The position numbers and the translations under genes are program-made. Shown piece after piece: positions 49,298 to 64,000 of a stretch of 64,000 bases of DNA. Numbering within the stretch: the first letter of the stretch is position 1; every line of letters begins with the position of its first letter. This DNA comes from Poseidonia sp. (lineage in GTDB: Archaea; Thermoplasmatota; Poseidoniia; Poseidoniales; Poseidoniaceae), in assembly GCA_965661285.1 (NCBI GenBank), contig CBFIDD010000002.1, positions 386,521-450,520 on the forward strand. Direction: 5' to 3'. The notes below the pieces were generated by a model. It ran no database searches. It was given only the letters and a program-made list of their open reading frames with translations, and was not told where the DNA came from.

Positions 49298-51481
49298 TCA
49301 CGATTTCTTGTTTTTCTTCTCGCCCTTGGCTTCGGTTTCCGGTTGGCTCGTTTCGTCAAGCAGAACCGCATCTTCAACCGAGACTAAGGCACGGGCATCG
49401 AGGGTGCTGGGTTCATCGATACGGAGACCTTGCACAAGAAGACCGAGCAGAATCAAAAGAATGAGAACGCCGCTCAGTGTGACGAGGTCGACGCCCAAAC
49501 CGGCACCGCTGTCATCACCAATCCCCGACCCCATGACGGTGGTGAACACCGGCAAGGAGGGAGCGCCTTGGTCGTTCAGGCCTCGAATCTCAACGCTTTG
49601 GTTTCCTGCCTCAAGTTGTGCCGGGTCAAGCGCCACAACCCATTCGAATCGCTCCAGGGCAGCAAGGCCACCCTCCACGGTTTCGTAGGTGGCTTCCATC
49701 CATGCTCCGCCGTTGATGCGGAATTCAACACTCGCCACCGCTCCCGACTGGCCCCATGCAAGGCCACGGATTTCGTGAAGGCCAGTGGATTCGTTCATCG
49801 ATGCATTGCTGATGTGAACTTGGGTGTTCACGTCAACGCTCCCGGTCAAATTTTGCTCTGCGAGATACACGGAGAGTTTGACCGCTTCATACGCATCGAC
49901 CATACCCCAACCGAAATCTCGGTTCCAGAACGGGTCGACCTCAGGAGCAGAGGCCTCGCCGCGGCGTTCTGCCGTGAGTTTGAGAATCTCCTTCATCTCC
50001 GCTGTGGTCAAGTCAGGATTGGCTTCAATCATCATGGCCAGAATACCAGAGACGGCTGGCGTAGCGTAGGACGTACCCGAGCCCCGCCCGGTGTAGCCGT
50101 TGTCTTCTGCAGAGCCACCGGCGAGGTTGACACACCCTCCTGAGGTCACGCAGCCTTCGGCCTGAACGATGTTGGTGCCGGGTGCAGAAACTTCGGGCTT
50201 CAATTCGTTGAGTGGATTGCCGTCGCCGTTGTCCCTGCGCTCACCACGGGATGAGTAAGACGCCACCGTGTCGTCGCCGCGGTCGATGGTGTTCTTGTCG
50301 TCGGTTGCACCGACGGTGATGGAGAGACTTGAGGAGCCCATGCCGGACAAGCCGTCGTTATCGGGCCCGTCATTTCCGGCTGCAGCGCTGACCACCACGC
50401 CGGCTTCCATCGCTTCGTTGAGAATACGGCTGTGCATGTCCTCGCCGTCCGACCCTCCACCCTCGTGTGAGGTGATGCCCCATGACAAGGAGATGATGTC
50501 AATACCGTAGCTCTCTTCATCCGCACCCTGCCAGGCCGTGTCCTTGTTGTCGATAATCCACTGGAGGCCATTCATGGCCGACTCGTAGAATTCTTGTTCA
50601 ATCACGTAATTTTCAAACGGACCAGCGCCTAAATCCGTGCCGATACGAACGTCGACGAGGTCGGCATCGGGAGCAGAACCGTAGAAATCGGTCTGAGCGC
50701 CGCTGGCATCAACACCGGTCGCAGCCGCCATGCCCATGCAGGCGGTGCCGTGCTGGTTACCGTCGTCCGGGTCGTAGGTGCCGTCGGTTTCTCGGGCCCC
50801 ACCAGCGGTGCACAGCGGGTCGGTGTGAACATAGCACACGGCATCGTAGCCCGCGATGAACTTCTCATTCAGTCCAGGGTGTTCGTTATCCACGCCCGTA
50901 TCCACCATCGCGATGTTGACGTTGGCACCGGTGAAACCGAGGTCCCATGCACCCATGGGGTAGAAACTGGAGTTTCGTGCTTTAACTGCAGGCGTTTGAA
51001 TGTCGCCATAGAACACGATGTTACCGTAGCGCTCGACCATGACCACATCGTCAAGGGCTGCGAGTTGGAAGGCCAGCGAGGCATCAAGTTGGCCAAGCAG
51101 GACCGCATCCACGGATTCAATGACATCCACGACGGTCAGGTTCAGGCCTTCAAGTTCAGCAAGGTGAACATCGCTGACCTCAACACCGTAGGACAATCCG
51201 ATACCGGTTGTGCCCTCAAAGGTCTCCAAACTGTCGTGGATGCTGTTTCGGTTTTGGTCAAGCGCCGTGCGTTCCCACCAAGGGGTGTTATCGTTCAACC
51301 ACGCTGCTTCGGCCTGTTGCGGCACTTCAAGACTGTAGCCAGCGGGCATCCACTGCACGCCTTGTGCGTCCACAGCCTGCCAACCGAGCGGCTCGGATTT
51401 GACCACCAAGGAACCGGTGACCGGCCCCATCAACAACGCAAGCACCAGCACCGCAAGCATTCGACGCATGTTCTTCCCCAT
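49298..51481 (-). CDS. S8 subtilisin-like serine peptidase, secreted and C-terminally anchored
   Basis: VDTG, HGTAC, AAAGN, SGTSYATP; signal peptide and C-terminal TM. Confidence 0.93.
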   Translation of the reverse strand: MGKNMRRMLAVLVLALLMGPVTGSLVVKSEPLGWQAVDAQGVQWMPAGYSLEVPQQAEAAWLNDNTPWWERTALDQNRNSIHDSLETFEGTTGIGLSYGVEVSDVHLAELEGLNLTVVDVIESVDAVLLGQLDASLAFQLAALDDVVMVERYGNIVFYGDIQTPAVKARNSSFYPMGAWDLGFTGANVNIAMVDTGVDNEHPGLNEKFIAGYDAVCYVHTDPLCTAGGARETDGTYDPDDGNQHGTACMGMAAATGVDASGAQTDFYGSAPDADLVDVRIGTDLGAGPFENYVIEQEFYESAMNGLQWIIDNKDTAWQGADEESYGIDIISLSWGITSHEGGGSDGEDMHSRILNEAMEAGVVVSAAAGNDGPDNDGLSGMGSSSLSITVGATDDKNTIDRGDDTVASYSSRGERRDNGDGNPLNELKPEVSAPGTNIVQAEGCVTSGGCVNLAGGSAEDNGYTGRGSGTSYATPAVSGILAMMIEANPDLTTAEMKEILKLTAERRGEASAPEVDPFWNRDFGWGMVDAYEAVKLSVYLAEQNLTGSVDVNTQVHISNASMNESTGLHEIRGLAWGQSGAVASVEFRINGGAWMEATYETVEGGLAALERFEWVVALDPAQLEAGNQSVEIRGLNDQGAPSLPVFTTVMGSGIGDDSGAGLGVDLVTLSGVLILLILLGLLVQGLRIDEPSTLDARALVSVEDAVLLDETSQPETEAKGEKKNKKS

Positions 51482-51531
51482 GCAAGGCGAACCTCGTGTT
51501 TGGCATCAACCTAACGCTGGGATGTGTTGTC

Positions 51532-51960
51532 TCATCGCTCGTCATCCACGAGGGAGGACGCTTGCATCATGACGCCCAGAGCGTTCACTGGTTTAGTGAT
51601 GAAATGCAACGCAACCCAACAGACTGCAAACATGCCGACCCAGTTTCCTGCATCCTCCAAGGGCCCCTCCGTTGTTTCAAGACCCAAAGTCAACGAGACC
51701 GTCATCAAGATGAGAACCACGAGGATGCCGAGGCTTCGACTCAAGGGACTCTCCCGGAGATTAACGCCCCAAATCGGGATGAAAAACAAGCCAATGCCCA
51801 AGCCACAACAGAAGCTGAACCAGCCATGTTAAGCAAAACCCGAGGAAGGGCCATCGCCCGATATCGTGGTCAGTATACCCCAGACTGAGCCGACAACAAT
51901 GGCAAAGATCACCCACCGGGCCACAAGCCAGTGCTCAATAACCCAATCGAGGAAGGTCAT
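51532..51960 (-). pseudogene. membrane protein gene interrupted by an in-frame TAA at 51829-51831
   Basis: Two track ORFs share one frame: ...SSGFA*HGWFSFCCGLGIGLFF... Confidence 0.6.
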
Positions 51961-52024
51961 GGTAGAGACTGTCCGTGGTGCCAATTCAAGATTTTGGCAA
52001 CGGTCGCCCTGTGCAGTCAAGAAT

Positions 52025-52207
52025 TGGTGGGAGCAGAGGGATTTGAACCCCCCCCAGCGGATTTCTTCTGAAACTGCGCATCAAATGGGCAGTCTGCAGG
52101 ATTGCAACGGGTCGGCGCTCCAGTTGGTCATCAACTTCAGCAAACCCACTCGTCGTCATTCCCGTGCAACTGGAGCCCGCGATACTACCAAGCTATACTA
52201 TACTCCC
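52025..52207 (-). tRNA. tRNA-Trp(CCA) with 107-nt intron (52063-52169), CCA encoded
   Basis: Exons GGGAGTA...GCGGGCTCCAG and ATCCGC...GGTTCAAATCC...TGCTCCCACCA give a 76-nt cloverleaf. Confidence 0.93.
52063..52169 (-). ncRNA. intron-encoded box C/D guide RNA
   Basis: Boxes ATGACGA (C), CTGA (D'), TTGATGA (C'), CCGA (D); guides CAACTGGAGC and GTGGGTTT complementary to the pre-tRNA anticodon arm. Confidence 0.85.
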
Positions 52208-52225
52208 GTGTTGTTACCCTTCGCA

Positions 52226-52333
52226 TCAGTTCTTGGCCTGTCGGCGTGCACGCTTTCGGCGTCGCAACTTCTTCTTGCGCCACTTCCAACGTTGGTTGCC
52301 GGTTTTCTTCCAAGCACGTGAACCTCGCTTCAT
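52226..52333 (-). CDS. rpl41e: ribosomal protein eL41 (not in ORF track)
   Basis: MKRGSRAWKKTGNQRWKWRKKKLRRRKRARRQAKN; CATATA upstream. Confidence 0.88.
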   Translation of the reverse strand: MKRGSRAWKKTGNQRWKWRKKKLRRRKRARRQAKN

Positions 52334-52434
52334 GGTGAACAGGCATCCCACTTGCCTTCCCTATATGAGAGCATCGTCTGCAGAATACACCACGTGGAAA
52401 CCAAGATTATACACCCGTCCATCAACCCCTACGC

Positions 52435-52746
52435 ATGGACCTCCCATCCCTGCTCGCAGAGAACATCACCCAAGGTGTCATCATCGGTTTTCTCGTCGGC
52501 ATGGCCGTACAGGTCGCTTCCAAAACCGTGCGCAACATGTTGATTCTCCAGTTCATCCTGTTGAAATTTCTTGAATCCCGAAACATCCTGATCGTCGATT
52601 GGCATCGCCTCACGGGCGGCCTGTTGGGCTCGCAAGAAGTGGTGGTTGGTCGCGCCCAGGAACTCATTGACACCGTGGTGGAAATGGGTGTTTTTGGTGG
52701 AGCGTTGGCCGCAGGTTTCTTGCTCGCTCGACGGGTGTTCAATTGA
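52435..52746 (+). CDS. FUN14-like small membrane protein
   Basis: G.IIGF..G....V..K, I.VDW..L, G...GF pattern; TTATAC 28 nt upstream. Confidence 0.7.
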   Translation: MDLPSLLAENITQGVIIGFLVGMAVQVASKTVRNMLILQFILLKFLESRNILIVDWHRLTGGLLGSQEVVVGRAQELIDTVVEMGVFGGALAAGFLLARRVFN

Positions 52747-52799
52747 GGACACAGGTGGGGCTGTGGCCCTTGGTCTGCGAGCCAGTTACAACGTAGCGC

Positions 52800-53036
52800 C
52801 TAAATGACGTCGATTCGAACCGGTGCAACCGTTTCGGGTGTTTCGTTGATCTTCTTCTGGGCGTTGAAAAGCAACACGCAGAAGACGGCGCACACGAGCG
52901 GTGGTAACAGAAGCGGCAGGAAGACGGCAAGGGATTGCTGAATAAAGATGGCAACCACTCCGAATATTCCAAACACGAATCCGAGACCGTTGGCGAGTGG
53001 CACAGCGGCGGCGTTGTCCATTTTATCTTGCGACAT
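52800..53036 (-). CDS. small hypothetical membrane protein
   Basis: Two TM segments. Confidence 0.55.
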   Translation of the reverse strand: MSQDKMDNAAAVPLANGLGFVFGIFGVVAIFIQQSLAVFLPLLLPPLVCAVFCVLLFNAQKKINETPETVAPVRIDVI

Positions 53037-53135
53037 GGTTCAACATAACATTGCGGGGTTTATATCGCTGTGTTTTTTTTGCCGCGCGCCAACCGTTCTT
53101 GGTCAACCAAGAACCCCACGTGGGTTGATGTATCG

Positions 53136-54080
53136 TCACGGGAGGCTAAACTGAGACATAAAGTCCCAGAGGATGGCAGATGACGGGGTGTTGGTGGGAT
53201 TACCGGAGAGGTATGGATTATGGCCAGAAGAAAACAAACTCATCAGCCTCACCTCGGCGTTCGCTGAACAATCTGAGTAGCCTCGGATATCGTAGTCAGC
53301 GGTGACCGTGATGACTTCAGGAAAGTCGCCACTGCAACCGTTGATATCGGACCAATACTCGAGATTCTGCATCGCACCTTTGTTGAATCCAACCGTGTTT
53401 TGGAACCAATACATGGTCATCCACGTGTTGTCGGCATAACTCACCGTTGTGTCCAGCACACCGTGGACCTCCATGAACGGGACGGGAGCGATGTATGAGG
53501 ACGGGGCATCTGTCATCAAGTATCCCGCCATGCAGCCAATGGAAGCCACAACACCTTGTGTCTCAACGGCAAAACGCTGTGTCATTTTGCATCCGTTGGA
53601 CCAACCCGTCATGTGAATCCTTGCTTCATCAACGGGATAGGCATTGGAGACCGATTCAATCACGGCTGTCAAAAACCCGACATCGTCGAGGTCATTTTCA
53701 ATGCCATCAAATCCCAATCCCCAAAATGAATCATAACCTTGGGGGTAGGCCACAAGAAAGCGTTCTTCAACCGCCAAGGCGGCAAACGAAGAGATGTTCA
53801 TTTGCGAAGCGCTGGTGTGCCCGTACCCGTGGAGGTCAAGGAGCAAAGGCACGGGTTCCTCGGGAGAGAGCCCTGCGGGCACCAAAAGCATCCAACAGCG
53901 CTCCACGCCTCGAAACTCGATGCATTCCGTGGAAAGGTTGCTGGCCTCGGAAGGTGGAGGCTCTTGCTCATTGACCTCAGTTGCAGGAACGGCTGCCTCC
54001 GGAAAGATGCAACCCGATACCGGGCAAAGCATCAACAGAAGCACGGACATCAACGCCGCTCGTCCCCGGGAATCACTCAT
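53136..54080 (-). CDS. PHB-depolymerase/LpqC-like alpha/beta-hydrolase lipoprotein
   Basis: LHGYG, VAYPQG, DDVGF, GWSNG nucleophile elbow, HG..D, GH; lipobox VSGC; GAGGTG SD. Confidence 0.82.
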   Translation of the reverse strand: MSDSRGRAALMSVLLLMLCPVSGCIFPEAAVPATEVNEQEPPPSEASNLSTECIEFRGVERCWMLLVPAGLSPEEPVPLLLDLHGYGHTSASQMNISSFAALAVEERFLVAYPQGYDSFWGLGFDGIENDLDDVGFLTAVIESVSNAYPVDEARIHMTGWSNGCKMTQRFAVETQGVVASIGCMAGYLMTDAPSSYIAPVPFMEVHGVLDTTVSYADNTWMTMYWFQNTVGFNKGAMQNLEYWSDINGCSGDFPEVITVTADYDIRGYSDCSANAEVRLMSLFSSGHNPYLSGNPTNTPSSAILWDFMSQFSLP

Positions 54081-54115
54081 GACCAGCACCTCAATCATCT
54101 CCTTGTAAAATGCGC

Positions 54116-54814
54116 TCATTTGGAGGTCGCTTCAACCGATACATCAAAGAACACAGCATCCCACGAGACCTCCACTTGCTCATCCGTATCAGAAACAGTG
54201 GGGATTCCCGAGGTAGCGGGTTCGTTGACGATGACCTCAATGTCCAACTCAAACGTCCCTTGCCCGTACGAATCATCAGACCATTCATCGCTCCAGTGAG
54301 ACGCATCCATTCCGGTGACGTTTTTTGATTGACCATCGTACCCTGGATAGACATAGAGGGTGAGGAGAATGGTTTCGCAATCCGATGAGACTCCGCTCAG
54401 TTCGTTGTTGCCGTTACTCCAATCTGCGGGGACGTCGGTGAGTGTGAGGTCGGCAGAAACGGTATCACACGGGTCAGCGAATTCTCCCGAGGTCTCTGCA
54501 TAGGAGATGGCGATGATGAGGCGCCCGAACCCGCTGTTGGCGTTGAAGAGTTCATCGGGTGCCGTGAAGGTCAACGTTTCCTTTTCACCGTCCTCAATCG
54601 TCCTTGCATCCGAAAAAGATTCGGAGGATTCCTCGAACACAATGGTGTAGCTCATTTCATCATCCTTCGCTTGAATCTCCTCGCCCATGATGAACCAAAA
54701 CACACTCGCATGGTAGAGCAAACCCACGGCCAGGACGGTGAGGTAGACGGTGAGGTTTCTCCGTGAACCATCATGTGAGAAGAGATCGGACAGGACGTTC
54801 TCACTCTGCGTCAT
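54116..54814 (-). CDS. hypothetical membrane-anchored acidic protein
   Basis: One N-terminal TM; start abuts the upstream stop codon. Confidence 0.7.
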   Translation of the reverse strand: MTQSENVLSDLFSHDGSRRNLTVYLTVLAVGLLYHASVFWFIMGEEIQAKDDEMSYTIVFEESSESFSDARTIEDGEKETLTFTAPDELFNANSGFGRLIIAISYAETSGEFADPCDTVSADLTLTDVPADWSNGNNELSGVSSDCETILLTLYVYPGYDGQSKNVTGMDASHWSDEWSDDSYGQGTFELDIEVIVNEPATSGIPTVSDTDEQVEVSWDAVFFDVSVEATSK

Positions 54815-54815
54815 G

Positions 54816-56120
54816 TTAGCCACCTCGCGTAAGTTGCAGTCCGATGATGACATCGAATTCCCATACATAATACGAGATGAGCAAGCTCACCAAGCTGTAA
54901 AGCAAACAGGCAATTTCGATTCTGCCGATGCTTCGTCGAGGAATATCAAGTTCCGGGAACCATCTGTTATCGACATTTTCTCGAAGTTGTGCCGTATTTG
55001 AAACGACGCTTTGGAACGATTTTTCTTCCCACCCCAACCCCAGAGCAATGATGATGCCGAGAAGCGCTGCCGTGATCATCTGATTGATGGGAATGATGGA
55101 TTGAACCAACTCAAGAATGGCGGATGTTGCGACCACAATCAAAATAATTGACATCGTTTTTGCCTGCGGTTTTGTTTCATCGTTGATTTCAATCAGCCCA
55201 AATCTGAGCAGGACGTACATGGCAATCAACGGTCGAATGATGGTAAAATGCATGCTCGTCGTGAAGGTCGCCCACAACTGGACGGCTCCATCTGTTTCAT
55301 TTTGCACGCCGAAGCCTGATGCGGTCCCTTGAGAATAGATCAAAAATCCAACGATACCCAACACGAAATAAGGCGCAATGATGTACAACAGCGTGTTCAT
55401 GTTGCCTTTCATGGCCTGGTAGATTTCCACGACGAGGATGGCGAGACCTGCTGCAATTCCAACAGCGTATCCTGCAACCCAGATGTAATTGGTAACATTG
55501 GAACTCAACATACCAAACGGGTCAAGGAAGTAAAAGTATTCTGATTGGAGAAGAAAACCAGGCCACCACATCCAAACATGTCCAAGAACGAGGGTCGTGA
55601 ACAAGCCAGCAACCAGCGCAATGTTTTGTGTGGAAGGGTTCGAGTCCTCAAGAGGAATCAATCGAAATTTGACGTAAACCGAACCCCATACGAGTGCGAC
55701 AAAGTAGTAAAACACGCCAGGGAGTCCGATGATGGTGAAATTCAAACCAATGACATCGAGAACAAGTCGGAACAAGGCAAGACCCGCAACGAGCCCCAAA
55801 CCGATTTTCATTTGCTTTATGTTCCTTAACAACGGAACCGGATAGAGCAAAGCGATGGCCATGATGCTTGATTCAAAGATGTAATCCATGGAGGCGGCGA
55901 TTTGGAACCAGAACTGCCACACATCCCCGATTGAATCTGAGTTCACATAACCGAATGCAGCGTTTTGAACGCCCTTGGTCACGAACATGAGGCAAAGGAT
56001 GTGGGCAGCCATGGCCTCGTTCCAAGGAAGGTTGACGTTCTTTCGAACGAGGCGGAGTGAGAGACCCCCCAAAGCAATGCTGAGGATTGCCCCAATAAAC
56101 AGGAGGTTTTCCTCGTCCAC
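54816..56120 (-). CDS. hypothetical polytopic membrane protein (about 10-11 TM)
   Basis: 434-aa highly hydrophobic ORF with GTG start. Confidence 0.75.
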   Translation of the reverse strand: MDEENLLFIGAILSIALGGLSLRLVRKNVNLPWNEAMAAHILCLMFVTKGVQNAAFGYVNSDSIGDVWQFWFQIAASMDYIFESSIMAIALLYPVPLLRNIKQMKIGLGLVAGLALFRLVLDVIGLNFTIIGLPGVFYYFVALVWGSVYVKFRLIPLEDSNPSTQNIALVAGLFTTLVLGHVWMWWPGFLLQSEYFYFLDPFGMLSSNVTNYIWVAGYAVGIAAGLAILVVEIYQAMKGNMNTLLYIIAPYFVLGIVGFLIYSQGTASGFGVQNETDGAVQLWATFTTSMHFTIIRPLIAMYVLLRFGLIEINDETKPQAKTMSIILIVVATSAILELVQSIIPINQMITAALLGIIIALGLGWEEKSFQSVVSNTAQLRENVDNRWFPELDIPRRSIGRIEIACLLYSLVSLLISYYVWEFDVIIGLQLTRGG

Positions 56121-56329
56121 GATTGATACACATCACGAATAAAAAAGAAGTTTTTGTTGAATCACTCCGTTATCGAATCAACGAATCCCCAGACAGATGA
56201 CGAGGAAACGGACGTACCAGTCTCCGCTCCCCAAACCCAAGTGGCTCAACTTGAAGCAACCATTCGGTCAGCTCACGCCTTGCTTCTAACAGGACTCATA
56301 GACGAGGCAACCAGCCTCCTCGCAGCCTT

Positions 56330-56406
56330 TTCAACCGGAGTTCAACCGAAGATTGACCGAGCGTTGACCGAAGTTCGGTCGAAGGTTGACCAAACATTGC
56401 CCAATG
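56330..56406. repeat. degenerate 11-bp tandem repeat x7
   Basis: TTCAACCGGAG TTCAACCGAAG ATTGACCGAGC GTTGACCGAAG TTCGGTCGAAG GTTGACCAAAC ATTGCCCAATG. Confidence 0.75.
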
Positions 56407-56424
56407 CAGAGAGGTGGTGATGTT

Positions 56425-57150
56425 TTGGTCAAGTTCGCATCGCTTCAAATCACCACGAACGCCAGCAAAGTGACGGTCAAATCGGGGAAATTTCGCCGTA
56501 GTATGCACGTTGCGGAATGGTCCGCCATGGTCAGTCAATCCATGGCCACCATGGTCCCACTAAATCCAAAGCCGAAACGCCCTTCTTCGCAGATTTACCT
56601 CGTTCGTGGACTCGGATTTCGACTGAAGGCTTGGGAAGGAATGCCGGATTGTTTGTTGCTGATTCAGCAACCACAACCACTTCCTGCACCAGTCGTTCCG
56701 GCAACCCTACCACCTCCTCCAATGTCGCTGAATTTAGGGAATGTACGGTTTGACCAGGTGTTGCATGCCGTCGAACAAAGCGTTCTCAGGGATGAGGGTG
56801 ACGAAGTAAGTATCATCGCCAAAGCAGGTGAAGAGGCTTACTTGACGGCGATGCGATTCGTCCAGCGCAACATCCTCCACCAAGAGATTTCGAGGCACAT
56901 TCCACAGGATGTGAAGATTGCCGTAGCCTTGCGAGATCGGGGGCGCTGCACCCACATCGACAACTTCAGGCAACGATGCACGGCAACGACGAGGTTGCAG
57001 TACGACCACCGTTTCATTCCCTTCTCTTTGGGTGGGCCGCAACGCATTTGGAACCTCACGCTGTATTGCGAAACCCACAATCAGGCGAAAAGCGACCAAG
57101 TGGATTTCGCCAAAGCACTGGTTGAATTCTTTGGAGGCTTGCTACCATGA
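56425..57150 (+). CDS. HNH endonuclease domain protein
   Basis: RHIP..VK..V..RD.GRC...C....LQYDH.IPFSLGG....NL.L.C..HN..KSD; TTG start after GGTGGTGA (alternative ATG 56404). Confidence 0.85.
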   Translation: MVKFASLQITTNASKVTVKSGKFRRSMHVAEWSAMVSQSMATMVPLNPKPKRPSSQIYLVRGLGFRLKAWEGMPDCLLLIQQPQPLPAPVVPATLPPPPMSLNLGNVRFDQVLHAVEQSVLRDEGDEVSIIAKAGEEAYLTAMRFVQRNILHQEISRHIPQDVKIAVALRDRGRCTHIDNFRQRCTATTRLQYDHRFIPFSLGGPQRIWNLTLYCETHNQAKSDQVDFAKALVEFFGGLLP

Positions 57151-57602
57151 GCAGAAACGCAAACGACGAACTTCCCGATGATTTGCTTGACAAGCTGAGG
57201 CTCCTTAACGAGCAACCCGATGACTATGATGCTGATACACGTCCACTGGTCTCGTTGAACGAGGACGACATCGGCACATTCCGCCCACCTGAACCAGCAT
57301 TGAGAGTTGGCGTTCGAGATTCTTCATACCTCAACTATCGTGCCTGGGGATACATCAGCGAAGATGAGCGTATTTTGCTTTCAGATGAAGGCGAGGTCTA
57401 CCTCAAAATGGATGAAGAAACATTCGGATCGAATGATGCATTGAGGATGATGTTTGAATTTGCATCAGATAGTGGAACTAGTGCGGCAAAAAAAATGATA
57501 AACATCAAGATTGGATTAAGGAAACTCATCTCTCGCCCCATACACAAAAGTGTCATAGAAAGAGTTTCAATCTGGCTGAAGAATGGGAGATTCGGCAAAT
57601 GA
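57147..57602 (+). CDS. hypothetical protein coupled to the HNH gene
   Basis: ATGA start/stop overlap; AT-richer than core genes. Confidence 0.7.
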   Translation: MSRNANDELPDDLLDKLRLLNEQPDDYDADTRPLVSLNEDDIGTFRPPEPALRVGVRDSSYLNYRAWGYISEDERILLSDEGEVYLKMDEETFGSNDALRMMFEFASDSGTSAAKKMINIKIGLRKLISRPIHKSVIERVSIWLKNGRFGK

Positions 57603-57694
57603 TGCTCATCGGCATTGAGGAAAATCATCGTGCGAAGGGGGTTCAAACACTTCCTCCCAATAACCTACTATATACCACGTCCATCGTTTAGGTC

Positions 57695-58798
57695 ATGCTT
57701 GGAGAAACCCCCGCATACAAAACAAGCCTGCTCAGTTGGGCAATCGCAGCGCTCCTGGTGGTCGTGGCCGCCAGTGGAACTGCGCTTGTTCTGAACAACA
57801 CCAATGGAATGCTTTCCGCTTCCGGAAATGATTCCGGCACCGATCCCGTTGAATCGGACAGCACCCTCTCACAAGATTCCGTCGAAGATGAAACCACACC
57901 CACTACTGGTGAGGAAGAAGAGGCATCCACTTCACTCACTGTTTCGGACGTGTCATTCGCGTTCGAATCCCTCAACTTTAGCGGTTCAGAGGATTTCTCA
58001 TTTACCCTTGAAGACGAAGAGGGGACGGTTTACGAAATCGCAGGTGACCAAGCAACCCAAGAGGTCACCGTCACCGCAACGTCTGATGACGGCACCGTTG
58101 AAACCGAGCGCATGGGCATGGAAGAATTCATGATCATGATGGAAGAGGAAGAAGACCCGTGTGCTGAAGAAGATGAAGATGATTGGTCTGATGAAGACGA
58201 AGACGACTGGTCCGATGAGGACGAGGACGAAGGCTCTGACGAAGACGACTGGTCCGATGAGGACGAAGACGAAGGTGCTGACGAAGACGAGGAGGACTGG
58301 TCCGATGAGGACGAGGACGAAGGTGCTGATGAAGATGAGGAAGTCCTCAGCATCACCATGAACTTCGAGACCGAAGAGGTCACCATCACCTACGTTGATG
58401 AGAACGGAGATGAGCAAACCGAAACGATGGGCCTGGAAGAATTCATGGCCGAGATGGAAGATGAAGATGATCCGTGTGCTGACGAGGACGAAGAAAACTG
58501 GTTCGACGAGGACGAGGACGAAGGCTCGGACGAAGATGAAGACGACTGGTCCGATGAGGACGAGGATGAAGGCTCGGGCCAAGACGAGGAAGTTCTCAGC
58601 ATCACGATGAATTTTGAAACCGAAGAGGTCACCATCACCTACGTTGATGAGAACGGAGACGAGCAGACAGAAACCGTTGACGCAGACGATTTCCATTCAA
58701 TCCTTGAAGAGTGGTTCGAAGAGGACGAAGAATCTGAAGACAAGGAAGATGAAGCTGCTCGGGACAACGAGTCAGCGGACTCCGAGGATGAACGCTGA
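57695..58798 (+). CDS. exported Asp/Glu-rich repeat protein
   Basis: N-terminal hydrophobic segment; DEDEDDWS repeats; 249-nt internal duplication; TATATA upstream. Confidence 0.8.
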   Translation: MLGETPAYKTSLLSWAIAALLVVVAASGTALVLNNTNGMLSASGNDSGTDPVESDSTLSQDSVEDETTPTTGEEEEASTSLTVSDVSFAFESLNFSGSEDFSFTLEDEEGTVYEIAGDQATQEVTVTATSDDGTVETERMGMEEFMIMMEEEEDPCAEEDEDDWSDEDEDDWSDEDEDEGSDEDDWSDEDEDEGADEDEEDWSDEDEDEGADEDEEVLSITMNFETEEVTITYVDENGDEQTETMGLEEFMAEMEDEDDPCADEDEENWFDEDEDEGSDEDEDDWSDEDEDEGSGQDEEVLSITMNFETEEVTITYVDENGDEQTETVDADDFHSILEEWFEEDEESEDKEDEAARDNESADSEDER

Positions 58799-58820
58799 GA
58801 GAAACCATTGAAGTGAAGCA

Positions 58821-60470
58821 ATGAGCGACCAGCGAATTGGGATTGGCATGAAAACGACACGGTACGGCACCCTTGCGATTCTCATCGCCGTGTTGTTGAT
58901 TCCGTGCCTGAGCGCTGTCACCGCATCATCCAATTCAGATCATCCTTCAATGGAGGATGAAACGGTGTTCTTGACCGATTGTGAGGTTGATGGGGCAGCG
59001 AAGTACAGCTTGCTTCACAATGTACCGCCAGAGTGGGTCAACATCCCTGAAGATTCCCTTTGGGATGAACATGAAGAGCTCATCTTCGCCTTTTCACCAA
59101 CCAACGTCAATCTCATTGATGTCGAATGGTACGATGATGAAACTCGAATGTCGGAACAATGGACGGTCGAGTGGCAACACCCACTGGCACCGGATGGAAT
59201 CGAAAACGCCACCGTCTTTTGCGAACCCGTGTACAGGACCAACGAAAGTCAGTTTGAAATCGTCGATGATGAACCGTTGTTGATCTTGAACAACTCCAAC
59301 AGCCGCAACCGTTTGCTCGCTGCATACCTCATGGCCGAAGACGAGGATGTCTTCTTCATGCAAGCAGAGGACGATGAATTCCAAGAATGGAAAGGGCAGA
59401 ATGCAGACTTGTATTGGCTTGATGATGAGGAGTATGTGTTGGTGGAGGAGGGGGATTTTGCCCAAATTGAAGCTCTCGTACTCACCCCAACCGCCGATGA
59501 ATTCCAAGTCGTTGACACCAATGATGGTCTCAACGTGACCACTTGGTTGAACACGACGAGCACCCATGCCTTGGTCTACGTGCTGAACGTCTACGACAAC
59601 GAGGATGGGGAGTTCTTTACCGTTCTCGGCTTAACGCCACAATATCAGCCCGTGAACAAGACGGACGAGCCGTTGGAAAACACAACCGATCGCAGCAGCG
59701 AGGACGAAGTTCAGCCAGAATCAACGTTTCAACCGGTTGAATCGGAAAGAACTGGAAGTGCTGGAGAATGGGTCGCCACCTATGGGCCAGCAGTGGCCGC
59801 GACGACCTCCGTATCCCTGGTAGCATTGACGTTTGCAAGTTCGGAATCGCTCCGCTATCCAATCTCTCGACGCTGGTGGGCGTTGCTTGGGCTTGTGCTG
59901 GCCACGAAACGGAAAACGCAAGACGGTGATTACCAGCGTGGAAAGATCGTTGGTGTCCTCTCGGTGAACCAAGGCATCCATTACTCGGCATTGGTTCAAC
60001 TGCTTGGCATGGGCAACAATCAAGCGGCCCACCATTTGAGAATCCTTGAGAGTGAAGGGCTCATTTGGCAACGTTCGGATGGTCGCTTCGTTCGATTCTA
60101 CACCGCCGACATTCCTCATCACTTGGCTCCCGAAGAGCTTCCTACGCCTGAAATCTCACTGGTCGAGGATTCCATCCCCCATCGCATTCTCATGCGACTG
60201 GCAGAGATGAGCGAACAACCGAGCAAGACGGTATCCGGACGATGGCTGTCGAAATCGCTGCGAATCTCGCAGCAATTGGTGTCCTACCACGTCAGGGTTC
60301 TGGTTAAGCATGAACTGGTGACCAAGCAACGTCAGGGCCTTGGCAATCATCTCGCTATTACAGCAAAGGGGCTTGGCATGTTGGCGGGCAACGATTTCCA
60401 TTCCGAGAGTTCAACAGAACCGATGCTGGCTCAATTTGCCGACCAGACGGCATCGTCTTCGGATTTCTGA
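58821..60470 (+). CDS. membrane-anchored winged-HTH regulator with large extracellular domain
   Basis: Signal peptide, acidic domain, TM, then RGKI...GIHYSAL...HHLRILE and QQLVSYHVRVL...IT.KG wHTH motifs. Confidence 0.8.
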   Translation: MSDQRIGIGMKTTRYGTLAILIAVLLIPCLSAVTASSNSDHPSMEDETVFLTDCEVDGAAKYSLLHNVPPEWVNIPEDSLWDEHEELIFAFSPTNVNLIDVEWYDDETRMSEQWTVEWQHPLAPDGIENATVFCEPVYRTNESQFEIVDDEPLLILNNSNSRNRLLAAYLMAEDEDVFFMQAEDDEFQEWKGQNADLYWLDDEEYVLVEEGDFAQIEALVLTPTADEFQVVDTNDGLNVTTWLNTTSTHALVYVLNVYDNEDGEFFTVLGLTPQYQPVNKTDEPLENTTDRSSEDEVQPESTFQPVESERTGSAGEWVATYGPAVAATTSVSLVALTFASSESLRYPISRRWWALLGLVLATKRKTQDGDYQRGKIVGVLSVNQGIHYSALVQLLGMGNNQAAHHLRILESEGLIWQRSDGRFVRFYTADIPHHLAPEELPTPEISLVEDSIPHRILMRLAEMSEQPSKTVSGRWLSKSLRISQQLVSYHVRVLVKHELVTKQRQGLGNHLAITAKGLGMLAGNDFHSESSTEPMLAQFADQTASSSDF

Positions 60471-60656
60471 GAAACAACAGAGGATGAGTTGAAATGAAAC
60501 TGAAACCGTGGATGGTCTCTGTACTTTGCCTCATCATCGCCTTACCGTTGGTGGCCAACAGCGCCTTCTCGGCACCCATTACCACCGCTGATCTCGGATT
60601 CTCACCTTCTTTCAGAAGGGCATGGGAAAACGCACATACCCGTTCCAAAATGAAAA

Positions 60657-60764
60657 CAACTGAAGGGACGGCGCAACCAGAGTGGCTGGACCGGTTCAGA
60701 AAGGTTCGGACTCCAAATCAACGAAGGGACGGCCTACACGCTTCGCGGGGTACGGACTTCAAAT
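60657..60764. repeat. imperfect direct repeats downstream of tRNA-Arg
   Basis: GAAGGGACGGC at 60662 and 60723; GGTWCGGACTYCAAAT at 60703 and 60749. Confidence 0.65.
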
Positions 60765-60770
60765 GGGGAG

Positions 60771-60844
60771 CGGACGTACCAGGATTCGAACCCGGGTTTT
60801 CGGCTTAGAAGGCCGAAGTGATATCCAGACTACACTATACGTCC
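60771..60844 (-). tRNA. tRNA-Arg(TCT), CCA not encoded
   Basis: GGACGTA...TTCGGC CT TCT AA GCCGAA...GGTTCGAATCC...TACGTCCG cloverleaf. Confidence 0.95.
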
Positions 60845-60887
60845 AGTCTTCGGGCTGAGCCGACCATACTTGAAGGGTGTGCCATCT

Positions 60888-61442
60888 TTACCAGGGGCGT
60901 GCGCACTTCAAACAGCGTGTCGGGCGGCGAACCGTCGTCCGTTTCCACGAGAATCCACACACCTTGCACGTCCACTGTTGCACTTTCAGATTATCCAAGA
61001 CGGCCGAGCGCATCTTCTGAAGCAGCGGTGAATCCTTCATCGCTGGCGAGGGTGCTACTTCGTTGGTCAATCGGTCGTGAAGGTCGGTGTGGAGCATAAG
61101 CCCCGCAGCATGGAAAAGTTCGTGCGCAAACGTGTGGCGGTACAGCGCATCATCTTCGAGCAAGGCAGGATGCAAGCCGATGGTGACTTCTCCGGGGTCG
61201 AGGCGAAGGCGACGACGACGGATAAGTTCGTTGCTGCCCTCTTCAAACCGAGTCATGCCCAAGCGGTCATCGTTCACGTCCAACCATTCAACAACAAAGC
61301 GGTCGGCAATCCACGGCAAGAACACGGCTTCAACATGACCGGAAAGGGCCGCAAGCACAGCATCCACCACGTCTTCGGGGACGCTGGGTGAATCGGTGGG
61401 TACCGGCGTGTCGGCGAGTGGCCCACGCTTTTCCTCGCCCAT
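60888..61442 (-). CDS. SprT-like zinc metalloprotease with C-terminal Zn ribbon
   Basis: HELFH..G..H; CKVC...CLKC. Confidence 0.75.
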   Translation of the reverse strand: MGEEKRGPLADTPVPTDSPSVPEDVVDAVLAALSGHVEAVFLPWIADRFVVEWLDVNDDRLGMTRFEEGSNELIRRRRLRLDPGEVTIGLHPALLEDDALYRHTFAHELFHAAGLMLHTDLHDRLTNEVAPSPAMKDSPLLQKMRSAVLDNLKVQQWTCKVCGFSWKRTTVRRPTRCLKCARPW

Positions 61443-61579
61443 GCTTAGGCCACGAAGCACCCCCTTCAAGAGGCTTGACGCTCACCTCCTCTGCGTTCTA
61501 TGCCATTGGGTCAGCGGGATGAAAGTCGGGAATCCTTATCATGGCGGGGCCGGTCGGCGGGTTGCGAAAGCACCCACAT

Positions 61580-61652
61580 GGGCGTGTAGATCAGTTGGAA
61601 GATCGCTACCTTGGCATGGTAGAGGCCCCGAGTTCAAATCTCGGCACGTCCA
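61580..61652 (+). tRNA. tRNA-Ala(GGC)
   Basis: Cloverleaf with G3:U70 pair; anticodon arm CTACC TT GGC AT GGTAG. Confidence 0.96.
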
Positions 61653-61758
61653 CTTCTTCTTTTGTTGATTTATATCAACGAAGTGGACCGTGCTGCCAAA
61701 ACCGATTCACTGCTCACCACCTCGGTTTTTGGCTCGGCACGTCCGCCACTCTATAGAA

Positions 61759-61935
61759 TCACTCAGCCTTCTTTTTTCGGCACGACCAACACATGGCCCG
61801 ATCTGATCCATTCGGAGTACGGAGGCCATAGGACGAGCGATTACAGATTTCACAGCGACGACTGCGCTGGGTAGAGTTACAACGGTGGCATCGACTTCCC
61901 ATCAATGGCATTCTGCATCGGTCGCACGTTCGCAT
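61759..61935 (-). CDS. 58-aa four-CxxC (double Zn-ribbon-like) microprotein (not in ORF track)
   Basis: MRTCDRCRMPLMGSRCHRCNSTQRSRRCEICNRSSYGLRTPNGSDRAMCWSCRKKKAE; TTTATG 29 nt upstream. Confidence 0.75.
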   Translation of the reverse strand: MRTCDRCRMPLMGSRCHRCNSTQRSRRCEICNRSSYGLRTPNGSDRAMCWSCRKKKAE

Positions 61936-61982
61936 GCTCTAAAGCGCCTCTGAGGCCTCATAAACATTGGATGTGGAGTGGT

Positions 61983-63788
61983 TTAATTCCGCCGTTGTCT
62001 AAGGAAAAGCAAGCCCAAAACCAGCATCCACATCATGGCCACCGGCGAGAATACAGGGGCAGAGACAAGCGAAACTTCGGAAACTTGTCCGCCTTGGCCA
62101 CCGCCGCCGCCGCCCTCACAACCGGGAGGAGGTGGCCCTATTCCTGGACCCCATGTTTCTCCAAATCCAGAGCAGTCCACGCCGCTTCCTCCTTCATCGA
62201 GGAAGGTCTCGCCGTGGTAGCACAGCAGGAAGTACGGGAAGCCCATGTCGCCCTCCCCGTTCATCATGGTGGAATGGTAGTGGTAGATGCCATCAGGGAA
62301 TTCAGGGGTTGGCCCGAAATGCCCGTTGCACACATCAAGATGGCCGAGTCCTTGAACGTAGACATAATCGTCAATCCCGTTGTAGCCCGTTTCGCCCTCC
62401 TTGAGTTTGTACGAGCTTTTCATCTCAACGACATTCATCTGGTCGTCATAGCCCCAAAGTCCGTAGATGGGGTAGCCGTCCATTGCAACACCAATCACTG
62501 CTGAATGTGTTCCATTAGCGGTATTCTGTGCTACGGCAGCAGGGGTGCTGATATCGTAGTCGAACATGTCCTCACCTTCTTCAGGGTGCCAGTGAAGGCA
62601 ATTGGCGTCAGCATGGTAATGGAAGGTACCTCCTTGGCCGTTGTGAGCATGGCACACGCCGAGTTCAATCGGCTGTCGGTCTTCCTCGTAGGCGCCATGC
62701 TGACTTGCTACGGCATCACCACCAGGCCCGTCTTCGGGGCCGTAGAACGGAACACCGTTGATGGCAATCGCCACTTCGCCGAGAGCCGCGGCGCACTCGT
62801 AATCGCCATTCGCTTCCGGACAATTCGTGGCATCGTGACCTGCCGTCGTGTCGTTGACCGGCGAGCGTGGAATGGTCCATTCGTAGTTCTGCGCACGGGT
62901 GCAATCGTTGCCCTGAGAGCACGCCAATGTCGATTCAAAATCGTGGTCGGGCAAACCGTTGGCTGCAATGGTGATGTGGGTCGAGTTCATCGTGATGCTG
63001 ACCGAACACTCGTGCGTTTCCACTGCTGTGGTCGTTAAATCATCAACCTGTGTGATGTTCTGACCAGATTGACAGCGGAACACATCAAGCCAAAACTGGC
63101 CCATATCGGTAGGATCATAGGTGGGTTGAGTGGGTCCCGGCGGGTCATCGGTGCCGTTGTCCGTTTCGTTTCCAGTGCTATTTCCGGTGCTGTTTCCGTT
63201 GTTTTCATTCGTCCCGTTGTTGGTGTTGTTGCCCGTTTCGTTTCCGCTGTTGTTATCGGTCCCGTCATCGGTCCCGCTGTCATTTTCGTCGGCTTGATTG
63301 GTTTCGTTTTCGGAAGTTGTTCGGTTGATTTCGATGAACGTGGTGTTTGAGATTGTCTCCTCCAAATCGTGGGTGGCCGTGATGTTGAGGTAAATCTGTT
63401 CGGCACTGCTTTGCACAAAAAGAGACCAGGCGCCGTCCATGTTGGGTTGTGTGGAGATGGAAACATCCTCCTCTACGCTCAATGTGACATTGATTTCATC
63501 GGGATGGAGGTGGTCGACATCGCCAAGGATGGCGATGGTGGAACCGTTGTCAATCACATTGCTGACCGACAACACGGGGGCAGGATGCGTGTGAAACATG
63601 GCATGCGGGTCCAGAGGTACACAATCAAAACCGTTCGCCGCTGAGGCATTGAGCACTTTTTGTGTGCCCACCAAACACGTGCTTTCTTCGACGGTTTCTT
63701 CCTCGGTCTCGTCTTCAGGCACCATCGTCACCAGCAGGCTGGCACCGAGAATCATGACCAAGACCAGCCAAATGGCATCGCGACCCAT
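61983..63788 (-). CDS. YHYH-domain cell-surface protein
   Basis: NGLPDH, AINGVPFY, FHYH, DGYPIYG, LDVCNGH, YHYH; N-terminal TM/signal; C-terminal TM followed by RQRRN. Confidence 0.88.
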   Translation of the reverse strand: MGRDAIWLVLVMILGASLLVTMVPEDETEEETVEESTCLVGTQKVLNASAANGFDCVPLDPHAMFHTHPAPVLSVSNVIDNGSTIAILGDVDHLHPDEINVTLSVEEDVSISTQPNMDGAWSLFVQSSAEQIYLNITATHDLEETISNTTFIEINRTTSENETNQADENDSGTDDGTDNNSGNETGNNTNNGTNENNGNSTGNSTGNETDNGTDDPPGPTQPTYDPTDMGQFWLDVFRCQSGQNITQVDDLTTTAVETHECSVSITMNSTHITIAANGLPDHDFESTLACSQGNDCTRAQNYEWTIPRSPVNDTTAGHDATNCPEANGDYECAAALGEVAIAINGVPFYGPEDGPGGDAVASQHGAYEEDRQPIELGVCHAHNGQGGTFHYHADANCLHWHPEEGEDMFDYDISTPAAVAQNTANGTHSAVIGVAMDGYPIYGLWGYDDQMNVVEMKSSYKLKEGETGYNGIDDYVYVQGLGHLDVCNGHFGPTPEFPDGIYHYHSTMMNGEGDMGFPYFLLCYHGETFLDEGGSGVDCSGFGETWGPGIGPPPPGCEGGGGGGQGGQVSEVSLVSAPVFSPVAMMWMLVLGLLFLRQRRN

Positions 63789-63892
63789 GAGCGACATGAA
63801 GGCAGGGACGCTTAAGGTGGTTTTGAACGATTGACTGCGGAAGCTCAAAGCCTGAATCAAACCTTCAAAAGCCATGTCGTGTTGCTCCCACC

Positions 63893-64000
63893 ATGGAACG
63901 CATGATCGTTGGCGGAGGTTGCTTCTGGTGCGTGGAAGGCGCTTACAAACAAATCCATGGCGTTGATTCTGCGCTCCCCGCTTACGCCGGCGGTCACGAC
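63893..64000 (+). CDS. msrA: peptide methionine sulfoxide reductase A, N-terminal fragment
   Basis: MERMIVGGGCFWCVEG...YAGG; TTCAAAA 29 nt upstream. Confidence 0.9.
   Translation, partial: MERMIVGGGCFWCVEGAYKQIHGVDSALPAYAGGHD

Follow-up and report, generated by a model that had tools for sequence, protein, structure and literature searches.

A probable integrase-less remnant of a tyrosine-integrase element at the 3' end of tRNA-Arg(TCT) in Poseidonia sp.

The DNA analyzed here, hereafter referred to as the window, is a stretch of 64,000 nucleotides from a Poseidonia sp. assembly (GCA_965661285.1; 1.98 Mb in 8 contigs, 93% complete), and our subject is the interval 56209-60782, which lies against the 3' end of an intact tRNA-Arg(TCT) gene. 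Two short repeats bound this interval. The direct repeat CGGACGTACCAG occurs in exact copies at 56209-56220 and 60771-60782, and the inverted repeat is formed by TCCGCTCCCCA (56223-56233) and its exact reverse complement at 60764-60774. We take the interval to be, very probably, an integrated element of the Poseidoniales that was inserted at the tRNA 3' end by a tyrosine integrase and now persists as an integrase-less remnant flanked by attachment (att) sites. The features that bear most directly on this reading are the following.

60770-60844, minus strand: tRNA-Arg(TCT) gene, the probable integration target (attB), still intact (ARAGORN, Rfam)
56209-56220, plus strand: core of the left att site (attL), identical to the final 12 nt of tRNA-Arg(TCT) and thus the identity segment in which strand exchange would have to occur (repeat match; relatives)
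60771-60782, plus strand: core of the right att site (attR), within the tRNA gene (repeat match)
56223-56233, plus strand: putative C' core-type half-site, the left arm of the inverted repeat; element-specific DNA starts at 56221 (repeat match; 16 contexts in other genomes)
60764-60774, minus strand: putative C core-type half-site, forming the inverted repeat's right arm; it overlaps the discriminator and acceptor end of the tRNA (repeat match)
60590-60770, plus strand: what is left of the integrase gene, ~60 codons from its 3' end that lie beyond the catalytic-tyrosine motif, fused to a stub as a chimeric ORF (open reading frame) at 60494-60808 (alignment to genomes G025 and G008; tblastn)
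56220-56420, plus strand: frame of 66 codons that keeps the phase of the integrase tail through the core, either a C-terminal extension that the integrase (Int) would have when excised or a separate small gene (conservation in copies)
60703-60718, plus strand: 16-nt direct repeat, copy 1, GGTTCGGACTCCAAAT, candidate accessory (arm-type) Int site (2 matches against 0 expected)
60749-60764, plus strand: 16-nt direct repeat, copy 2, GGTACGGACTTCAAAT, candidate accessory (arm-type) Int site (2 matches against 0 expected)

A preliminary description of this locus had reported both boundary repeats and called a chance origin of the two matches unlikely, and we agree on both points. In the window, 0.01 matches to the 12-mer and 0.08 to the 11-mer would be expected; each motif has 2, a number that neither reaches in any of 100 shuffles of the window sequence. 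Both repeats are exact and non-random. Across the whole assembly the 11-mer is found only at its two window sites, and the 12-mer has one extra site, on contig C1.

The left end of the interval is also where homology to other genomes begins. Within a sample of 401 Poseidoniales genomes, 33 match the query 56150-60770, and among the matches listed 11 start exactly at 56209 and end at ~57455 with an identity of 72–95%, other genera and another family being included. This left module is 94–95% identical across genera, and the chromosomal flanks are merely 73–82% identical even within the genus. It is clear that 56209 is a real breakpoint. The attL junction is unchanged in metagenome contigs of two independent studies (runs X2 and X4), and the window stretch as a whole is present nearly unchanged in runs from 13 studies, mostly marine or plankton metagenomes where the organism is recorded. 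The preliminary description had looked to relatives for a breakpoint at 56209-56233; it is present in them at 56209, which supports the earlier view of a discrete mobile unit at the tRNA-Arg 3' end without a working integrase. tRNA-Arg genes carrying neither the element nor an integrase tail are found in five genomes (G015, G003, G011, G019, and G232). The left flank of the window itself occurs in 5 of the 59 other genomes sampled from the genus, always with intervening DNA where it lies at tRNA-Arg; in G011, 3.6 kb separates the flank from the tRNA and has no counterpart in the window's genome.

In 16 junction contexts from other genomes, TCTCCGCTCCCCAAACCC directly follows the core with a few substitutions at most, and the element interior begins TCTCC(G/A)CT(C/T)CCC, invariably after the same tRNA position. 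The repeated attL core is always a tRNA 3' end, with lengths of 12, 13, 15, 15, 15, 16, 17, 18, and 19 nt. In G025, which belongs to another family, the same left end is preceded by CTGGCGGACCTGCGGG, the 16-nt 3' end of its tRNA-Arg(GCG), and a homologue of window 60590-60769 precedes tRNA-Arg(GCG) on a different contig. Because its end point is fixed, its sequence is always the end of the target tRNA and its length varies, the direct repeat is an att core, not a target-site duplication. The 12-bp att core that the preliminary description offered as one of two options is essentially right, with the refinement that the core varies from 12 to 19 nt and matches the other target tRNA in G025. Inserts of ~100 nt flanked by a 12-nt repeat of the tRNA 3' end (TGGACGCTGGGG) were also observed at tRNA-Ala(TGC) in G407:C2 and G018:C97 (loci L098 and L101), and these are minimal att-bounded scars of the same kind.

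The integrase itself is found in relatives. A full-length integrase of 380 aa is encoded at the same tRNA-Arg(TCT)/tRNA-Ala(GGC) locus in G043 and G260, and also in the metagenome contig L141. It matches PF00589 (E 2e-10) and the PHROG integrase families (E 1.5e-17), and a Pfam scan of the G043 protein with E up to 0.1 returns only PF00589 and two weak helix-turn-helix (HTH) families, with no PF16795. The integrated integrase genes of the relatives are whole, including the box II motif and the catalytic tyrosine, and the 3' end of int overlaps the tRNA 3' end in all eight loci examined (three at tRNA-Arg(TCT) and five at tRNA-Ala(TGC)). The DNA upstream of the G025 tRNA codes for a tyrosine-recombinase box II region, marked by RH..A and HY motifs, in a frame that continues for ~70 codons into the tRNA. 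Nine of 12 fetched homologous proteins end in GFEP, the translation of the T-arm, and the other three end in different short strings. The C-terminus of the integrase has a match in 25 of the 401 order genomes, and an alignment of the integrase family, compared with one genome per prokaryotic species, gives 17 loci, all from Poseidoniales / marine group II or from unclassified euryarchaeote metagenome-assembled genomes.

Only the tail of this gene is left in the window. A tblastn comparison of full-length Int with the window's genome recovers residues 308-380 only, at window 60587-60805, and none of the five interval ORFs is an intact integrase or transposase by Pfam or PHROGs. The earlier statement that no integrase or transposase lies between the repeats is therefore correct for intact genes and needs amending for 60590-60770, which is an integrase 3' tail. 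In G284 a tail 96% identical to that of the window has the catalytic domain in front of it, and G008 carries a tail remnant with almost the same breakpoint as the window. The only PF00589 gene in the window's assembly lies elsewhere on C1 and presumably encodes a chromosomal Xer-type recombinase.

The standard layout of a tyrosine-recombinase core is two inverted half-sites around a spacer. When attR and attL are joined on paper, we obtain two 11-nt inverted half-sites separated by a 10-nt spacer, the first 8 nt of which fall inside the 12-nt tRNA identity. The attP of the excised form would consist, in order, of the integrase tail, TGGGGAGCGGA, CGTACCAGTC, TCCGCTCCCCA, and the left end, and the spacer between the core-type half-sites would hold the crossover region, with cleavage sites predicted within CGTACCAG. 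Recombination of this attP with the identical 12 nt of tRNA-Arg(TCT), presumably catalyzed by the family integrase, would leave each att site with one half-site and a core, attL at 56209-56233 and attR at 60764-60782. Because attP has the tyrosine-recombinase core layout, the terminal inverted repeats (TIRs) of the preliminary description would be the C and C' half-sites, and its target-site duplication the overlap region.

Agreement between the two half-sites differs among relatives. An inverted repeat that matches at all 11 positions occurs only in a TGGGGAG sub-lineage, which accounts for 4 of 15 tRNA-Arg contexts (G000, G284, G008, and G260), and in G260 this version adjoins an intact integrase. 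Other tail-bearing contexts, the G043 and G077 elements included, have a TTGGTGG version with an 8/11 match, so the perfection of the inverted repeat is a sub-lineage trait. The two 16-nt direct repeats are found at −79 and −33 from the T-arm in six of six tRNA-Arg elements, and tRNA-Ala elements have a motif similar to the second copy. Since the two copies occupy different reading frames, a role at the DNA level can be argued, and we propose them, by their sequence and placement, as candidate accessory Int-binding sites.

The proposed attP would lie inside the last part of the integrase frame, and an attP within this frame means that the integrated frame ends in tRNA-coded residues. On the other side of the core stands the 66-codon frame of the left end, which is open to the same stop in 11 full-length copies (three further listed copies diverge earlier and three leave the contig). 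Its variable columns number 18/13/29 by codon position, a bias toward the third, and the median dN/dS is 0.31 (54 usable pairs from 11 copies). As the tail frame continues in phase into these 66 codons, the excised integrase would be ~66 residues longer than the integrated form. Tail, core and left end are joined in G043:C21, G198, G077, and G045, and the same is true of 31 among 43 junctions from metagenomes and of reads and contigs from runs X4 and X23; a natural ORF across all three parts occurs at the end of G043:C21, only behind a truncated int. From these sequences we infer that the integrase may exchange its tail at integration and excision.

The other features of the interval belong to the left module or to a segment that has taken the place of part of the original element.

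56386-57150, plus strand: 254-aa protein whose C-terminus has an HNH-like nuclease motif, left module (PHROG HNH families, E 1e-4 to 2e-3; 72–95% DNA identity elsewhere)
57147-57602, plus strand: 151-aa protein, function unassigned, left module (ORF, kept in relatives)
57639-60595, plus strand: 2,957-bp replacement segment, in place of the CHAT gene through the integrase catalytic-tyrosine codon (homology breaks; metagenome contig breaks)
57695-58798, plus strand: acidic repeat protein (ORF)
58821-60470, plus strand: membrane and double winged-helix protein (Pfam HTH domains)
60494-60595, plus strand: 34-codon signal-peptide-like stub (ORF)

The HNH-like protein has no match in a Pfam scan, and the 151-aa protein has none in Pfam, PHROG or PADLOC; the gene for the latter follows the HNH-like gene in G043, G025, G260, G077, G198, and L141. 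To the right of this pair, DNA homology to other elements, L141 among them, ends near 57455 and returns at ~60590, and contigs of run X2 depart from the window sequence at 57638/57639 and at 60595. The window copy would thus have lost, at some later time, the gene that follows the 151-aa ORF and all that lay beyond it up to the catalytic-tyrosine codon of the integrase, with 2,957 bp of other DNA substituted. No terminal repeats of this segment were found beyond a GGRTTC microhomology, read by eye, at both borders. The C-terminal half of the winged-helix protein is related to proteins of 840–960 aa that 223 of the 249 host-family genomes encode, and a scan of a genome-contig collection with the 549-aa protein gave no match.

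What a complete element looks like can be read from L141 (11,034 bp), in which the element spans 10.8 kb with its genes all on one strand. The order is an older tail remnant, the core, the 66-codon frame, an HNH-like protein, a 150-aa protein, a 1,210-aa CHAT protein (Pfam E 2.9e-15), a 206-aa protein, a radical-SAM/B12 protein (PADLOC PDC-M51A, E 8e-149), an 814-aa Argonaute/PIWI protein (PADLOC PprPIWI, E 7e-77), the 380-aa integrase, and tRNA-Arg(TCT). Among the non-integrase ORFs, four yield the CHAT, radical-SAM/B12 and PIWI matches and in one case none, and the left-module pair was judged through its window homologues. A CHAT-domain protein of 1,140–1,210 aa is encoded directly after the HNH-like and 150-aa genes in L141, G260:C125, G077:C2, and G198:C24, and this trio may be an undescribed defence system. 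A different content was observed in G043:C21 (locus L082, 6962-15388), where two giant surface-type proteins (1,142 and 1,526 aa) lie between the left module and the tail remnant, so that the same att-bounded frame carries very different cargo across genomes.

To the left of the element, 53136-56188 holds three genes (an esterase-like protein of 327 aa, a 250-aa protein, and a 434-aa membrane protein). In four other genomes of the genus the segment from 53136 to ~56188 lies on the 3' side of tRNA-Ala(TGC), beside an integrase-tail-like remnant; in the window's genome and in G011 it is at tRNA-Arg(TCT) instead. The tRNA-Ala(TGC) of the window's genome (C1:49814-49889) has kept the remnant, and the segment is missing there. 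Since the segment sits at different tRNAs in different genomes, island segments seem to move between tRNA att sites. Further out, 350 bp at 52027-52376 reach 96–99% identity among several genomes of the genus, against 72–82% for neighbouring DNA; Rfam at the gathering threshold returns two tRNAs only for 50000-64000, and nothing that would name this stretch.

Taken together, we consider the window element to be an ordinary copy, now decayed, from a family driven by integrases, and the earlier suggestion of a new class of tRNA-targeting element is not supported. The remnant would be non-autonomous, and any movement would need a related integrase acting in trans. A number of results weigh against this reading. 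The assembly, in which no cognate family integrase is found, is 93% complete, so that such a gene could be hidden in the missing part. The empty-site comparison proposed in the preliminary description succeeded only in part, with the five unoccupied tRNA-Arg genes on one side and, on the other, a left flank as in the window that forms an exact empty site in none of the 59 other genus genomes. A free attP form was not found. Joints of the whole element as an empty site or circle are absent from the four metagenome runs checked, three of them as contigs, in which rare forms are dropped, and one as raw reads that barely cover the strain, so rare events are possible. IMG/VR scans with the full integrase, the HNH-like protein, the 151-aa protein, and the attP pattern returned only one unrelated HNH-sharing contig. 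On the proposed tail exchange, of 22 metagenome junctions preceded by 1.2 kb or more of sequence, none has an intact full-length int reading through, which is why we regard these junctions as tandem junctions behind decayed elements, and none of the 12 fetched homologous proteins has the C-terminal extension. The exactness of the inverted repeat may be incidental, being confined to one sub-lineage. There is also an unexplained joint in run X8, where a contig (depth 9.8) joins 60595 back to 57639, 2,957 bp back; in the same run the interior 57341-60505 has a depth of ~20 with 0–1 mismatches and the left flank of the window a depth of 0. This joint and these depths point to the replacement segment as a discrete unit that, alone or with the rest of the integrase-less element, also occurs in some other context or in a tandem or circular form.

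The X8 depths also count in favor of a rival that we regard as a real if rather unlikely possibility, namely that the window element is a live cassette, one of a set of integrase-less att units that accrete at tRNA genes and are moved between genomes and tRNA sites by the integrases of other elements, whether co-resident or newly arriving. In its favor, the window element has identical cores, both half-sites intact, and a tail that keeps both 16-nt repeats. The near identity of the left module across genera and the occurrence of 53136-56188 at tRNA-Ala(TGC) in four other genomes point the same way, as do tandem arrays, including the 2,450-bp contig L135, in which an integrase-less cassette of 2,142 bp stands between two junctions of the tail-core-left-end type, in tandem with another element. 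Against it, excision, circle or empty-site joints of the window element were not seen in the material checked, the assembly holds no family integrase, and simple decay after serial integration is equally expected to give arrays and remnants.

The other option raised in the preliminary description, a transposon- or casposon-like non-autonomous element with 11-bp TIRs and a target-site duplication (8 bp in the original proposal, 8–12 bp more generally), is very improbable. It draws on the perfect 11-nt inverted repeat that adjoins the direct repeat, and on the way in which the repeated sequence of G025 tracks its target tRNA. Its difficulty is that the duplication has no fixed length (12–19 nt) and that the right “TIR” overlaps the repeat and falls to 8/11 in the TTGGTGG version; in addition, the left arm shows a 2-nt offset and the right arm is mostly tRNA sequence. 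Relatives carry a PF00589 integrase beside the tRNA; no transposase was seen in them, the complete element of L141 included, and no search aimed at Cas1 was made. That the repeats are coincidental or an assembly artefact, and the interval ordinary chromosome, has next to no probability: the shortness of the repeats speaks for it and nothing else does, and it is contradicted by the shuffle statistics, by the junction in the X2 and X4 contigs, and by homology that breaks exactly at 56209 in many genomes.

Insertion by a tyrosine integrase followed by decay also has parallels in known systems. The accessible text on cis-mobilizable elements (CIMEs) describes them as having lost integration and transfer genes and retained attL and attR (PMC5704250). 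The window element is similar in having no integration genes and in keeping attL and attR at the 3' end of its target gene, and it fits the CIME definition because its cores and half-sites are intact and Int is reduced to a tail. It differs in its archaeal host, in that no conjugation module is seen in any copy, in that its mobilization is a matter of inference, and in integrase families that differ by name. The relatives L141 and G043:C21 resemble the tandem accretion of the ICESt1/ICESt3 type in streptococci, with integration, decay, and new integration at the tRNA-proximal att site; accretion is seen in these relatives, and the window has no accreted partner.

The myxophage Mx8 has a tRNA gene as its target. 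As far as the available portion of the source describes it (PMC6070905), attP of Mx8 falls within the coding region of int, close to its 3' end, so that integration gives the gene a different 3' end (IntP/IntX) and leaves the catalytic part whole. The Poseidoniales elements would be alike in layout, with att in the 3'-terminal part of int and integration probably replacing the C-terminus, the excised form being deduced here from tandem junctions; they differ in that Mx8 is a bacterial tailed phage and no viral genes are seen in the archaeal elements. The “suicidal” integrases of SSV1, pTN3, and pT26-2 (PF16795) are split so that the catalytic domain is left in a separated Int(C) pseudogene, according to the available parts of two papers (PMC8371274, PMC7253208). 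They share with the present family an archaeal tyrosine integrase, an att site inside its own gene and a tRNA target, and the difference is that here the split falls ~70 codons past the catalytic tyrosine, the integrated gene is whole (380 aa), and the family is PF00589.

In the literature on integrative elements of Poseidoniales / marine group II, the one relevant work found was the Charybdis preprint (bioRxiv 10.1101/2025.08.03.668216). The available part describes clade P as tRNA-adjacent and integrase-bearing in Poseidoniales, with circles of ~4.6 kb, two opposed modules, and Gp3, a double Greek-key protein of ~230 aa. The likeness lies in the host order, the tRNA-adjacent integration, the integrase, and the size of ~4.6 kb, which matches that of the interval by coincidence. 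Compared by description, the difference is that the interval ORFs are all on the plus strand and that the complete relatives are 10.8 kb long with defence-type cargo; on gene orientation and on this content we set aside the interval as a Charybdis proelement. The Charybdis integrase could be of the same family. In the available part of a 2021 review of archaeal tyrosine recombinases, neither name of marine group II occurs (PMC8371274). The family is undescribed for Poseidoniales, and the proposed layout with att in the 3'-terminal part of the gene is already known from Mx8.

Marine group II comprises abundant, uncultured archaea, and next to nothing has been published on their integrative elements. 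The locus described here and its relatives provide a worked anatomy of att sites, with core, half-sites, candidate arm sites, and target tRNAs, and the family points to the carriage of defence genes between genera. A wider view, which we consider unlikely at present, is that in Poseidoniales the genes for tRNA-Arg and tRNA-Ala serve as platforms for gene capture, where att cassettes, many lacking an integrase and some bearing defence systems such as an Argonaute, are arrayed, swapped between tRNAs and genera, and mobilized in trans by an integrase that exchanges its C-terminus whenever it integrates or excises, with the window element as one live cassette. If this were true, the exchange of the C-terminus could set directionality without a separate excisionase, and the 2,957-bp insert could be a small circular or tandem unit.

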